NCBI RefSeq assembly: GCF_003334355.1
Contig: NZ_QOWP01000008.1
Source of the DNA: Escherichia coli
Lineage (GTDB): Bacteria > Pseudomonadota > Gammaproteobacteria > Enterobacterales > Enterobacteriaceae
DNA length: 64,000 nt
Strand: one strand, 5' to 3'
Part shown: one piece after another, positions 15,208-50,691 of the stretch
Numbering within the stretch: position 1 is the first letter of the stretch
Layout: each line of letters opens with the position of its first letter
Program-made: the position numbers and the translations under genes
The notes under the pieces: model-generated
The model's input: the letters and a program-made list of their open reading frames with translations, nothing else
Databases searched by the model: none
What the model was told of the DNA's origin: nothing

Positions 15208-16599
15208 TTACTGTTTTTCTGGTGGGAAAATCAGATTCAGCACGATGGCAGTAATACCGCCCGCGGCGATCCCGGAGGAGAGCAGGTTTTTCAGCCATTC
15301 AGGGGCAAACTGCAAAATCAGCGGCTGCTGAGACACGCCCAGACCAACCGCCAGCGACAGCGCGATAATCAGAATCGCCCGACGGTTCAGCGGCTCACGA
15401 GAAACGATACGCACACCGGAGGCGGCGATGGTGCCAAACATTACAAGCGTTGCGCCGCCCAGAACCGGTTCTGGAATGTGTTGTACAAAACCGCTCACTG
15501 CCGGGAACAGACCCAGCACGATCAACATCAGCGCGACGACAAAACCGACATAGCGGCTGGCAACACCAGTCAACTGGATCACTCCGTTGTTTTGCCCGAA
15601 GCAGGAGTTCGGGAAGGTGTTAAACACCGCCGAAACAAACGAGTTCAGGCCGTTTGCCAGCACGCCACCTTTCAGGCGTTTCATGTACAGCGGACCGGAC
15701 ACTGGCTGTTCGGAAACGTCAGAGGTCGCCGTGATATCGCCAATGGTTTCCAGCGAAGTGATCATAAAGACCAGCATCAGCGGCAGCAGCAGACTCCATT
15801 CAATGCCAAGACCGTAATAGAGCGGCGTTGGCACCATAATCAGTTCTTGCGTCATCGGTTCGTTGCTTTCTGGCAACATGCCCATAAACCACGCCAGCGC
15901 ATATCCGGCCGCCATCGCAATCACCAGTGAGGCCACGCGTAAGTAAGGGTTACGTTGACGGTTAAGCAGGATAATTAAGGCTAAGACCACGCCTGCCAGC
16001 AGCAGATTTTTCGGTGCGCCGAAGGTGTTATCGCTCATGGCTGCGTAACCGCCGCCAATGGACGTTAACCCAACCTGAATTAGCGACAGGCCGATAATCA
16101 TCACCACAACGCCAGAAACCAGCGGCGTAATAATGCGGCGCGCCAGATGCAGAACGCGGGAGATCACCATCTCGGTGCAACTTGCCAGCATCAACGTGCC
16201 GAACAAAGCCGCCATCATGGTAGGAACATCAGCACCACCGGTTTTCAGCGCGGTACCGCCCATAATCAGCGGGGCAACAAAGTTGAAGCTGGTGCCCTGA
16301 ATAGACAACAGCCCGGAGCCAACCGGACCCCAGGCCTTAATTTGAATAATCGATGCCACACCGGAGGCAAACAGCGACATACTAATAATGTGTTGCGTGT
16401 CTTGTGCCGGTAAACCCAGCGCCTGGCAGATTAATAGCGCTGGCGTGATCACCGCAACGAACATCGCCAGCAGATGCTGACAGGCGGCAAACAGGGTTTG
16501 AGGAAGCGGCGGACGATCTTCAAGACGGTAAATCAGTTCGCTGTTTTGAGTCTGCGCAACCGGTTGCGCATTTTCTGACTCGAGGGTGGAAACAGACAT
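15208..16599 (-). CDS. xanP: xanthine permease (NCS2 family), 463 aa
   Basis: ORF 15208..16608; start at [16 protein letters not shown] (ATG 16597-16599); nucleobase:cation symporter-2 composition. Confidence 0.75.
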
Positions 16600-16878
16600 C
16601 GAAAACAATCCCGTGGTAGCAAAGCGGGCATTTTAGCTGACCGAAAGAGAAAAGCAAACGTTTGCCACATCCTCATCTAAATATTTAAATGAGATAAATG
16701 CACTTTTTTATATAACTTTTGGTATTTTTCTGCTTAAAATCCATGCCATTTGTTCATTAACAGCTGAGAATTTGACCCAGGAAAGCATAACTCGATACCC
16801 GTCATAGTTCATGAAGTTGCCACTGCGCGATGAAGTATGACGAGTATGAAAGAGTGATGCGGATACAAAGGAGTAACT

Positions 16879-18084
16879 ATGTTTCATCTCGATACTTTAG
16901 CAACGCTTGTTGCCGCAACGCTGACGTTGCTGCTCGGGCGTAAGTTGGTCCATTCCGTCTCCTTTTTGAAGAAATACACCATACCGGAACCTGTTGCGGG
17001 TGGTTTGTTGGTGGCGCTGGCGCTACTAGTACTGAAAAAAAGCATGGGCTGGGAAGTCAACTTTGATATGTCCCTGCGCGATCCGTTAATGCTGGCTTTC
17101 TTCGCCACCATTGGCCTGAACGCCAACATTGCCAGTTTGCGTGCCGGTGGGCGTGTGGTTGGCATCTTCTTGATTGTGGTTGTTGGTCTGTTGGTGATGC
17201 AAAATGCCATTGGCATTGGTATGGCTAGCTTGTTAGGGCTTGATCCGCTGATGGGGCTGTTGGCCGGTTCTATTACGCTTTCCGGCGGTCACGGTACGGG
17301 CGCTGCGTGGAGTAAATTGTTCATTGAACGTTATGGCTTCACCAATGCGACGGAAGTGGCGATGGCCTGTGCAACGTTCGGTCTGGTGCTGGGCGGCTTG
17401 ATTGGCGGTCCGGTGGCGCGCTATCTGGTGAAACACTCCACCACGCCGAACGGTATTCCGGATGACCAGGAAGTCCCGACGGCGTTTGAAAAGCCGGATG
17501 TGGGACGCATGATCACCTCGTTGGTGCTGATTGAAACTATCGCGCTGATTGCTATCTGCCTGACGGTGGGGAAAATTGTTGCGCAACTTTTGGCTGGCAC
17601 TGCTTTTGAACTGCCGACCTTCGTCTGTGTACTGTTTGTTGGCGTGATTCTGAGCAACGGTCTGTCAATAATGGGCTTTTACCGCGTCTTTGAGCGTGCG
17701 GTATCCGTGCTGGGTAACGTAAGCTTGTCGTTGTTCCTGGCGATGGCGTTGATGGGGCTGAAACTGTGGGAGCTGGCTTCGCTGGCGCTGCCGATGCTGG
17801 CGATTCTGGTGGTACAGACCATCTTCATGGCGTTGTATGCCATCTTCGTTACCTGGCGCATGATGGGCAAAAACTACGATGCGGCAGTGCTGGCTGCGGG
17901 TCACTGTGGTTTTGGCCTCGGTGCAACGCCAACGGCAATCGCCAACATGCAGGCGATCACTGAACGCTTTGGCCCGTCGCACATGGCGTTTTTGGTGGTG
18001 CCGATGGTCGGTGCGTTCTTTATCGATATCGTCAATGCGCTGGTAATTAAGTTGTATTTGATGTTGCCGATTTTTGCCGGTTAA
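16879..18084 (+). CDS. gltS: sodium/glutamate symporter, 401 aa
   Basis: 401 aa polytopic membrane protein; N-terminus MFHLDTLATLVAATLTLLLGRKL recalled as GltS. Confidence 0.8.
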   Translation: MFHLDTLATLVAATLTLLLGRKLVHSVSFLKKYTIPEPVAGGLLVALALLVLKKSMGWEVNFDMSLRDPLMLAFFATIGLNANIASLRAGGRVVGIFLIVVVGLLVMQNAIGIGMASLLGLDPLMGLLAGSITLSGGHGTGAAWSKLFIERYGFTNATEVAMACATFGLVLGGLIGGPVARYLVKHSTTPNGIPDDQEVPTAFEKPDVGRMITSLVLIETIALIAICLTVGKIVAQLLAGTAFELPTFVCVLFVGVILSNGLSIMGFYRVFERAVSVLGNVSLSLFLAMALMGLKLWELASLALPMLAILVVQTIFMALYAIFVTWRMMGKNYDAAVLAAGHCGFGLGATPTAIANMQAITERFGPSHMAFLVVPMVGAFFIDIVNALVIKLYLMLPIFAG

Positions 18085-23492: not shown

Positions 23493-24257
<765 letters not shown>

Positions 24258-29747: not shown

Positions 29748-29779
29748 GTCTGTAGAAAAGTAAGATGAGGAGCGAAGGC

Positions 29780-30421
29780 ATGAAACCATATCAGCGCCAG
29801 TTTATTGAATTTGCGCTTAGCAAGCAGGTGTTAAAGTTTGGCGAGTTTACGCTGAAATCCGGGCGTAAAAGCCCCTATTTCTTCAACGCCGGGCTGTTTA
29901 ATACCGGGCGCGATCTGGCACTGTTAGGCCGTTTTTACGCTGAAGCATTGGTGGATTCCGGCATTGAGTTCGATCTGCTGTTTGGCCCTGCTTACAAAGG
30001 GATCCCGATTGCTACCACAACCGCCGTGGCGCTGGCGGAGCATCATGACCTGGACCTGCCGTACTGCTTTAACCGCAAAGAGGCAAAAGACCACGGTGAA
30101 GGCGGCAATCTGGTCGGTAGCGCGTTACAAGGACGCGTAATGCTGGTGGATGATGTGATCACCGCCGGAACGGCGATTCGCGAGTCGATGGAAATTATTC
30201 AGGCCAATGGCGCGACGCTTGCTGGCGTATTGATTTCGCTTGATCGTCAGGAACGCGGGCGCGGCGAGATTTCGGCGATTCAGGAAGTTGAGCGTGATTA
30301 CAACTGCAAAGTGATCTCTATCATCACCCTGAAAGATCTGATTGCCTACCTGGAAGAGAAGCCAGAAATGGCGGAACATCTGGCGGCGGTTAAAGCCTAT
30401 CGCGAAGAGTTTGGCGTTTAA
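29780..30421 (+). CDS. pyrE: orotate phosphoribosyltransferase, 213 aa
   Basis: ORF 29765..30421; start [23 protein letters not shown]; PRPP-binding motif [13 protein letters not shown]. Confidence 0.9.
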
Positions 30422-37419: not shown

Positions 37420-38478
37420 GTGGATAAGCCATTTCGAAGAATTTTGCTCATTAAGATGCGTTTTCATGGGGATATGTTATTAACTACTCCCGTCATTAGT
37501 TCGCTGAAAAAAAATTACCCTGACGCAAAAATCGATGTGCTGCTTTATCAGGACACCATCCCGATCCTGTCTGAAAATCCAGAGATTAACGCGCTCTACG
37601 GCATAAAAAATAAAAAAGCAAAAGCCTCAGAAAAAATTGCCAACTTTTTTCATCTCATCAAGGTATTACGTGCCAATAAGTATGACCTTATCGTCAATCT
37701 TACCGATCAATGGATGGTTGCTATACTGGTTCGCTTATTAAATGCCCGTGTGAAAATTTCCCAGGATTATCATCATCGGCAGTCTGCTTTTTGGCGTAAA
37801 AGTTTCACCCATTTGGTGCCGTTGCAGGGTGGAAATGTGGTGGAAAGTAACTTATCCGTGCTGATACCATTGGGACTTGATTCGTTGGTGAAGCAGACAA
37901 CCATGAGTTACCCGCCTGCAAGCTGGAAACGTATGCGTCGCGAACTTGATCACGCTGGTGTTGGACAAAATTATGTGGTTATCCAACCTACGGCGCGGCA
38001 AATCTTCAAATGCTGGGACAACGCCAAGTTTTCCGCTGTGATTGATGCCTTACATGCTCGTGGTTATGAAGTCGTTCTGACGTCCGGCCCAGATAAAGAC
38101 GATCTGGCCTGCGTCAATGAAATTGCGCAGGGATGCCAGACGCCACCAGTAACGGCGCTGGCTGGAAAGGTGACCTTCCCGGAACTTGGTGCGTTAATCG
38201 ATCATGCGCAGCTGTTTATTGGCGTTGATTCCGCACCGGCGCATATTGCCGCTGCAGTTAATACGCCGCTGATATCGCTGTTTGGTGCGACAGACCATAT
38301 TTTCTGGCGTCCCTGGTCAAATAACATGATTCAATTCTGGGCGGGAGATTACCGGGAAATGCCAACGCGCGATCAGCGTGACCGAAATGAGATGTATCTT
38401 TCGGTTATTCCGGCGGCAGATGTCATTGCTGCTGTCGATAAATTACTGCCCTCCTCCACGACAGGTACGTCGTTATGA
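37420..38478 (+). CDS. waaQ: LPS heptosyltransferase III (GT9)
   Basis: ORF track 352 aa; start codon in the track is GTG at 37420 (exact start uncertain); RILLIKMRFHGDMLLTTPVISSLKK heptosyltransferase N-terminus. Confidence 0.8.
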   Translation: MDKPFRRILLIKMRFHGDMLLTTPVISSLKKNYPDAKIDVLLYQDTIPILSENPEINALYGIKNKKAKASEKIANFFHLIKVLRANKYDLIVNLTDQWMVAILVRLLNARVKISQDYHHRQSAFWRKSFTHLVPLQGGNVVESNLSVLIPLGLDSLVKQTTMSYPPASWKRMRRELDHAGVGQNYVVIQPTARQIFKCWDNAKFSAVIDALHARGYEVVLTSGPDKDDLACVNEIAQGCQTPPVTALAGKVTFPELGALIDHAQLFIGVDSAPAHIAAAVNTPLISLFGATDHIFWRPWSNNMIQFWAGDYREMPTRDQRDRNEMYLSVIPAADVIAAVDKLLPSSTTGTSL

Positions 38479-46333: not shown

Positions 46334-47289
46334 ATCAATGTGATTTTTTTATAAACAGCCGCTGCTTCTAAATTATTTAAATTCATTAGCGGAGCCCTAC
46401 AAACCATCTGATTCTTCCCATACCCGCCAATTAATCCAGGGTCGGTAGGTCCATAAACCGTGATATTGGGTCTATCCAGTGCCGCCGTTAAATGGCTTAA
46501 CCCCGTATCCACCGACACTACAAATTTAGCCCCGGCCAGCACGCGGGCAACGCCTTCCAGACTCATCTTAGGCAATACTTCAACATAAGCAAATCCTTCC
46601 GCCAGTCGTTTCGCCCGTTCTTCCTCATGCGGCGCGCCCCACGGAAGTTTAATCCGTATTCCTGAATCAGCCAGTAAACCAATCAATTCTCGCCAGTGTT
46701 CTTCCGGCCAGTGTTTATCATCACGGGTCGTCGCATGAAGAAATACGGCATATTCGCCAGCATCTGTAGGCAGGTTCGTCAGAAAATGCTGTGCGATAGC
46801 ATAATCGCCCTGGGTTTGCGGTTTGCTATAGCCCAAACTTTTGGCAAACAGTTCGCGGGTGCGTTCTACGGCGTGCTGCTGTTTTGCAATATGATGCTTA
46901 CGATTGTAAAACAGACTGGCTAAAGGTTCGCGAGCGGTTTTCCAGTCCATGCCATGCTTTACGCCATGCGCCAGACGCGTCACCAGCGCCGCGCTTTTTA
47001 CCAGCCCCTGAGCGTCGATAACTGCGTCATAGTTCTCTGCTTGTAGCGCTTCACGAAACGCTTTGCGTTCCGCTTTTATGGGGGCCGAGAACCAGGCTTT
47101 ACGCCAGCGACGTATTGCCACAGGAATAACTCGCTCAACGGCAGCGTGCCAGGAAGGAATCTGTGCGAACCCTTCTTCCACCACCCAGTCAAACTTAATC
47201 CCTGGGATTGCCTGCTGGGCATCAGTGAGTGCGGGCAACGTATGGAGAACATCGCCCATCGACGATGTTTTAACGATCAAAACCCGCAT
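46330..47289 (-). CDS. waaC: LPS heptosyltransferase I, 319 aa
   Basis: MRVLIVKTSSMGDVLHTLPALTDA; GT9. Confidence 0.9.
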   Translation of the reverse strand: MRVLIVKTSSMGDVLHTLPALTDAQQAIPGIKFDWVVEEGFAQIPSWHAAVERVIPVAIRRWRKAWFSAPIKAERKAFREALQAENYDAVIDAQGLVKSAALVTRLAHGVKHGMDWKTAREPLASLFYNRKHHIAKQQHAVERTRELFAKSLGYSKPQTQGDYAIAQHFLTNLPTDAGEYAVFLHATTRDDKHWPEEHWRELIGLLADSGIRIKLPWGAPHEEERAKRLAEGFAYVEVLPKMSLEGVARVLAGAKFVVSVDTGLSHLTAALDRPNITVYGPTDPGLIGGYGKNQMVCRAPLMNLNNLEAAAVYKKITLI

Positions 47290-49494: not shown

Positions 49495-50691
49495 ATGCGT
49501 GGAGAATTTTATCAGCAGTTAACCAACGATCTGGAAACCGCACGGGCGGAAGGGTTGTTTAAAGAAGAGCGCATTATTACGTCTGCGCAGCAAGCAGATA
49601 TCACTGTGGCTGATGGAAGCCACGTCATTAACTTTTGTGCCAATAACTATCTCGGGCTGGCGAATCATCCGGATCTGATTGCGGCGGCAAAGGCGGGAAT
49701 GGATTCTCACGGTTTCGGCATGGCTTCGGTGCGTTTTATTTGCGGCACTCAGGACAGCCATAAAGAGCTTGAACAAAAACTGGCGGCATTCCTGGGGATG
49801 GAAGATGCGATTCTCTACTCTTCCTGCTTTGATGCTAACGGTGGCCTGTTTGAAACGCTGCTGGGCGCGGAAGACGCCATTATCTCCGACGCACTGAACC
49901 ACGCGTCTATTATTGATGGTGTGCGTCTGTGTAAAGCTAAACGCTATCGCTATGCCAACAACGATATGCAGGAGCTGGAAGCACGTCTGAAAGAAGCGCG
50001 TGAAGCCGGTGCGCATCATGTGTTGATTGCCACCGATGGTGTGTTCTCGATGGACGGCGTGATTGCCAATCTGAAGGGCGTTTGCGATCTGGCAGATAAA
50101 TACGATGCCCTGGTGATGGTAGACGACTCCCACGCGGTCGGTTTTGTCGGTGAAAATGGTCGTGGTTCCCATGAATACTGCGATGTGATGGACCGGGTCG
50201 ATATTATCACCGGTACGCTTGGTAAAGCGCTGGGCGGGGCTTCTGGTGGTTATACCGCGGCGCGCAAAGAAGTGGTTGAGTGGCTGCGCCAGCGTTCTCG
50301 TCCGTATCTGTTCTCCAACTCGCTGGCACCGGCCATTGTTGCCGCTTCTATCAAAGTGCTGGAGATGGTTGAAGCGGGTAGCGAGCTGCGTGACCGTCTG
50401 TGGGCGAACGCGCGTCAGTTCCGTGAGCAAATGTCGGCGGCGGGCTTTACCCTGGCGGGAGCCGATCATGCCATTATTCCGGTCATGCTTGGTGATGCGG
50501 TAGTGGCGCAGAAATTTGCCCGTGAGCTGCAAAAAGAGGGCATTTACGTCACCGGTTTCTTCTATCCGGTCGTTCCGAAAGGTCAGGCGCGTATTCGTAC
50601 CCAGATGTCTGCGGCGCATACCCCTGAGCAAATTACGCGTGCAGTAGAAGCATTCACGCGTATTGGTAAACAACTGGGCGTTATTGCCTGA
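49495..50691 (+). CDS. kbl: 2-amino-3-ketobutyrate CoA ligase (glycine C-acetyltransferase), 398 aa
   Basis: 398 aa PLP-dependent class-II aminotransferase-like; [28 protein letters not shown]. Confidence 0.9.

Follow-up and report, generated by a model that had tools for sequence, protein, structure and literature searches.

The region considered here lies between two divergently transcribed genes in a 64-kb window of Escherichia coli chromosomal DNA, the window being the whole stretch that was analysed. The two genes are as follows.

15208-16599, minus strand: coding sequence of xanP (yicE), the xanthine/H+ symporter and the regulated gene, identified from the RefSeq annotation of identical E. 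coli genomes and from its translation.

16879-18084, plus strand: gltS, the divergent neighbour of xanP, taken from the annotation and given for context only.

xanP starts with an ATG at 16599 (minus strand). When 1.4 kb around the palindrome described below was used as a query, it proved 100% identical to many complete E. coli genomes, in which both xanP and gltS are annotated, and the 341 nt from the gltS start to xanP codon 20 are 100% identical to those of K-12 MG1655. Of 5424 E. coli genomes, 5385 carry the 131-nt segment spanning both palindromes of this locus at 99% identity or more. A preliminary description of the sequence had placed a PurR-box-like palindrome in a xanP-gltS divergent region, an arrangement with which the annotation agrees (gltS on the plus strand, xanP on the minus strand). 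The palindrome, here called O1, is listed below.

16652-16667, minus strand: PurR operator O1 of xanP. In the sense orientation of xanP its sequence is TGGCAAACGTTTGCTT, and 16654-16665 hold the core palindrome GCAAACGTTTGC.

The box had been given as aaGCAAACGTTTGCca (AAGCAAACGTTTGCCA) with a perfect 12-nt palindrome at its core, and both the coordinates and the sequence were found to be correct. It had been put about 60 bp from the xanP start, and it does span positions -68 to -53 relative to the ATG with its centre at -60. O1 has the form expected of a PurR operator, being a 16-bp imperfect palindrome with a central CpG and GCAA/TTGC arms, in which the 12-nt core is perfect. The likeness to the PurR consensus that had been noted is also present: O1 shows three mismatches to ACGCAAACGTTTTCNT, the consensus used in that description, and matches ACGCAAACGTTTGCGT at 13 of 16 positions.

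A PurR weight-matrix scan had been proposed in the same description. Matrices were built from the sites in Table 1 of Cho et al. (2011; PMC3159470) with xanP left out. With 13 classical operators in the matrix O1 scores 18.7 bits (p = 2.2e-7 per position) and ranks first among the 128,000 positions of the window; chance would give about 0.03 sites as good per 64-kb window and about 1e-4 in the 280-bp gltS-xanP intergenic region. When all 27 other sites of Cho et al. were used the score was 16.9 bits, with 0.13 such sites expected per window. The 13 training operators themselves score 16.0-24.9 bits, a range that includes the 18.7 bits of O1, and O1 sits among the weaker genuine operators, namely those of purMN, carAB and guaBA.

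The exact 12-mer palindrome of O1 is unique in the window. Matches to it with up to two mismatches are uninformative, since seven were seen against 5.4 expected in the window. Three further PurR-like matches were found, at 37923-37938, 47053-47068 and 50286-50301. These lie inside genes of the LPS core (rfaQ, an LPS N-acetylglucosaminyltransferase gene and rfaF) and were treated as chance matches for that reason. The first was found by a consensus search allowing three mismatches and by that search only, while the other two score 12.5-14.0 bits, the one at 50286-50301 scoring 12.5-13.1 bits and the one at 47053-47068 having no central CG. At gmk (23493-24116) and pyrE (29779-30420), nucleotide-metabolism genes of the window, no PurR-like site was present among the top weight-matrix matches.

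That PurR acts at this site is established knowledge. Cho et al. (2011; PMC3159470) carried out ChIP-chip on tagged PurR in MG1655 and found a peak at xanP both in the presence and in the absence of adenine (log2 ratios of 2.08 and 1.36 respectively in their Table 1). The motif that they place beneath the peak, at 3,826,900-3,826,915, is TGGCAAACGTTTGCTT, the reverse complement of the 16-mer of the preliminary description. [quoted passage not shown] The PurR site at xanP is curated in RegulonDB with 'strong evidence' (PMC3548332), and the PurR-1 iModulon includes xanP (PMC8376909). As early as 2008 the E. coli PurR regulon of Tractor_DB contained gltS and, under its old name yicE, xanP (PMC2329645). 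The functional evidence for O1 comes from one ChIP-chip and microarray study together with a transcriptome decomposition; no in vitro footprint of O1 was found in the literature, and the resolution of ChIP-chip is too low to separate O1 from a second palindrome 98 bp away, which is considered below. O1 is thus the already published PurR operator of xanP. The earlier suggestion that purine repression controls xanthine uptake through this box was right, being supported by the ChIP-chip data, the adenine repression, RegulonDB and the iModulon, and the comparative analysis that follows agrees with it. It is also nothing new, control of xanP through exactly this site having been published since 2011, recorded in RegulonDB and predicted computationally before that. 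What is added here is modest: a phylogenetic footprint that fixes the geometry of operator and promoter, and evidence that O1 is owned by xanP and not by gltS.

A scan of species-representative genomes yielded 80 xanP loci, with 90-100% protein identity, from about 30 genera of Enterobacteriaceae. Upstream of xanP all 80 have a PurR-type site, which scores 13.6-19.4 bits and is centred at -60 in most loci and at -59 to -72 in the others; Kosakonia has the box as well. Ten positions of O1 are invariant in the 81 sequences, these being 3-6 (GCAA), 8-9 (CG) and 11-14 (TTGC). Substitutions are confined to four positions: 1 and 2 take any base, 7 is A, T or C, and 10 is T or A. Known PurR operators differ from one another at these same places. 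Upstream of about -70 the intergenic DNA of different genera cannot be aligned, which makes O1 a true footprint. In a search for orthologues beyond the Enterobacteriaceae, the best 120 word-index matches were all at least 90% identical save for one partial match at 84%. Among the 50%-identity representatives there was one 65%-identical protein, the rest being at most 51% identical and in unrelated gene contexts; none had a PurR-like site at the corresponding positions, and these distant proteins are uninformative. The 65%-identical XanP homologue (L084; CP074374.1) is encoded on a 572-kb contig of 25% GC, with a GTP cyclohydrolase I gene on one side and a UbiD-family gene on the other, and has a PurR-like site neither upstream nor in its 5' coding region. 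This contig is possibly from a reduced (endosymbiont-like) genome.

The same alignment points to the promoter that O1 would control. A consensus sigma-70 promoter scan of 16500-16950 gave no promoter at the thresholds used, and the promoter was therefore inferred from conservation. Its predicted elements are the following.

16652-16657, minus strand: predicted -35 hexamer TTGCTT of the xanP promoter, lying within the promoter-proximal half of O1.

16630-16635, minus strand: predicted -10 hexamer TAAAAT of the xanP promoter, present as TA[A/G]AAT exactly 16 nt after the box in 81 of 81 sequences.

TTGCTT, 16 nt upstream of the -10 hexamer and so suitably spaced for a -35 element, matches the -35 consensus at three of six positions only. 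The two ends of O1 are conserved unequally: positions 15 and 16 (TT) are kept in 80 and 81 of the 81 sequences respectively, while the distal positions 1 and 2 vary freely. Such an asymmetry is what would be expected if the two bases served both PurR and RNA polymerase. All variation in length between species falls between the -10 hexamer and the ATG. Because of the invariant 16-nt spacing and the asymmetric conservation of TT, O1 probably overlaps the -35 element of xanP, with PurR blocking the binding of RNA polymerase. Relative to the predicted -35 hexamer, O1 also lies where a PurR operator should, in or near the promoter of a nucleotide-metabolism or transport gene. Operators that overlap the promoter have been described for many PurR targets, with a location in the -35/-10 region in 44% of PurR-regulated promoters (PMC3159470).

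We are highly confident that the 16-bp palindrome is the PurR operator through which xanP is repressed from a position at the predicted -35 element, most likely by exclusion of RNA polymerase. PurR, a member of the LacI family, binds O1 when loaded with its corepressor, hypoxanthine or guanine; there it would cover the predicted -35 hexamer, at a fixed 16 nt from TAAAAT, and would most likely keep RNA polymerase off the xanP promoter. Xanthine uptake is then turned off when purines are plentiful, along with de novo purine synthesis.

A different geometry would have PurR bound at O1 act as a roadblock to polymerase arriving from a promoter further upstream, the operator not covering a -35 element at all. 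The AT-rich DNA upstream of O1 (16668-16720) does contain -10-like hexamers, and PurR has been reported to block elongation at purB and purR (PMC3159470). However, the DNA upstream of -70 in which such a promoter would lie is not conserved between genera, whereas TAAAAT 16 nt downstream of O1 is invariant as TA[A/G]AAT, and it is the positions of O1 forming the -35 hexamer that are conserved asymmetrically. An upstream promoter with O1 as roadblock is accordingly unlikely, and occlusion at the -35 element is retained as the preferred mechanism.

It might also be supposed that O1 serves mainly the divergent gltS, or that it is the operator of another LacI-family repressor such as RbsR or Cra, given that a palindrome with a central CG is a design common to LacI-family operators. 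The listing of gltS beside yicE in the PurR regulon by Tractor_DB (PMC2329645) would fit the first of these. Against them, O1 is 212-227 nt from the gltS ATG, and its arms (GCAAACG) are of the PurR type, with 15 of 16 positions identical to the purMN operator. The ChIP was performed on tagged PurR, and Cho et al. assign both the peak and direct repression to xanP (PMC3159470). The comparative data bear on the same point. Of the 80 loci, 19 showed no gltS upstream of xanP, two of these having short upstream flanks, and the position of O1, at -60 of xanP, was still kept (loci of this kind include L009, L019, L020 and L024). In Kosakonia (L083, 1376-1500) the gene immediately before xanP is recG, which has the same orientation and is separated from it by a spacer of 125 nt, and O1, the -10 hexamer and the intragenic palindrome are all kept. 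The divergent gltS-xanP arrangement is therefore not universal, and because the box stays where gltS is not the upstream neighbour O1 can be assigned to xanP and does not appear to belong to gltS. Service to gltS or to another repressor is considered very improbable. Also in the intergenic region, TGCTTAAAAT lies at 16731-16740 on the plus strand, with the gltS ATG about 140 nt downstream. It is conserved in part among species that keep gltS beside xanP and may be the -10 region of the gltS promoter.

That O1 is a functionless chance match is scarcely credible: the 12-mer with up to two mismatches is as common in the window as expected and about two sites as good as O1 would be expected per E. 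coli genome, but there is a ChIP-chip peak and an adenine repression attributed to PurR (PMC3159470), and in about 30 genera the core never changes, in contrast to the intergenic DNA around it, which diverges.

A second palindrome lies within the coding sequence of xanP. This is an 18-nt perfect palindrome, TGCGCAACCGGTTGCGCA, at 16553-16570 (xanP codons 10-16), and it contains a candidate operator, O2.

16554-16569, no strand assigned: candidate O2 within xanP, GCGCAACCGGTTGCGC, centred at +38 from the ATG (+30 to +47) and covering codons Ala11-Gln16 (AQPVAQ).

As would be looked for in an intragenic operator, O2 is of the PurR type, has a central CpG and lies within what is transcribed. It scores 14.5 bits with the PurR weight matrix (p = 4.5e-6 per position) and matches the consensus at 12 of 16 positions. 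Its AACCG half-site occurs in the purB and purL operators, and the half-site CGGTTGCG in that of purEK. A PurR-like site of 12.9-17.2 bits is present at +38 in 79 of the 80 loci and in Kosakonia, the single exception scoring 3.0.

Conservation of O2 was assessed from synonymous entropy in a codon alignment of the 81 genes, using windows of six codons (449 windows). The windows starting at codons 9-12 hold ranks 1 to 4 of 449 for lowest synonymous entropy, with values of 0.03-0.20 against a median of 1.04. Over the candidate the codons are GCG in 80 of 81 sequences, CAA in 81 of 81, CCG in 77 of the 78 with proline at residue 13, GTT in 45 of 45 and GCG in 78 of 81. The central C8 and G9 of the motif are kept almost everywhere, G9 being the four-fold degenerate base of the Pro13 codon. 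Variation is normal in codons 2-8 and 17-32, and the residues of the N-terminal tail that flank the motif are variable. As the lowest synonymous entropy in the gene coincides with flanking codons and residues that do vary, the constraint on O2 is at the level of nucleotides.

Two explanations fit this constraint, a DNA operator or a hairpin in the mRNA, and the operator is favoured for several reasons. O2 matches the PurR motif, and a proven PurR site lies 98 bp from it. In a hairpin the central CG would form the loop, yet it is almost invariant although its G is four-fold degenerate. Positions 7 and 10 of the motif do change. One arm has its outer two bases altered in three species with no compensation, and no compensatory pair changes were found in the 7-bp stem of the would-be hairpin in the 81-sequence comparison. 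The 5' region of the xanP mRNA folds no better than shuffled controls (z = -0.36). These points make a hairpin the less likely explanation. A search of Rfam with 16300-17000 returned nothing relevant. The sole 'terminator' reported by the promoter scan, at 16553-16570 on the plus strand, was rejected as such, being the intragenic palindrome read antisense.

As a candidate operator, O2 would have been kept across Enterobacteriaceae by selection on synonymous sites, and would work together with O1 at the promoter as either an auxiliary operator or a roadblock. The distance between the two is 98 bp here, and centre to centre it ranges from 97 to 110 bp between species. Such variation speaks for the two being bound independently, as are the operators of purR itself, and against phased looping. 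From the motif and its conservation we consider it reasonably probable that O2 is a functional PurR site. The narrower claim, that it is a functional PurR operator and also hitherto undescribed, is put forward tentatively. GCGCAACCGGTTGCGC was not found in the searchable literature, a body of text that leaves the RegulonDB and EcoCyc site tables and the older comparative-genomics papers outside its coverage. O2 is the only element of this locus that might be new. If it is an operator, it could explain the 20-30-fold repression of xanP, which is far above that of other PurR-controlled purine transporters, and constraint on the DNA would also fix AQP(V/I)A in an otherwise variable N-terminal tail. 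It would then extend a textbook regulon in a minor but definite way and be a clear case of regulatory DNA constraining a protein sequence.

Comparison with known PurR systems places O1 among the classical operators, including those of purF, purMN, purHD, purEK and purL, which share with it the 16-bp imperfect palindrome, the central CpG and the GCAA/TTGC arms. The purMN operator, TCGCAAACGTTTGCTT, differs from O1 at one base. The location in the -35/-10 region, the bound protein and the corepressor logic are likewise alike. The best classical operators score 21-25 bits and have outer bases AC...GT, whereas O1 is weaker at 18.7 bits with outer bases TG...TT, and the classical targets are biosynthetic enzymes whereas xanP encodes a purine-base transporter. 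Candidate O2, located past the promoter and within a coding sequence, resembles in this the purB operator and the site in the purR coding region. The intragenic site is the sole known operator of purB, whereas O2 would be auxiliary to one at the promoter. The sites within purB and purR are reported to be transcriptional roadblocks at which PurR blocks elongation (He and Zalkin, 1992, as cited in PMC3159470), and O2 of xanP is in comparison a candidate known here from its sequence. Among the transporters, ghxP/yjcD, adeP/yieG, codB and tsx are like xanP in having a PurR motif under an upstream ChIP-chip peak and in being repressed by adenine (PMC3159470). Of the purine transporters xanP is the most strongly repressed, 20-fold as against 2-3-fold for yieG, and it differs further in being occupied by PurR also when no adenine has been added (PMC3159470).
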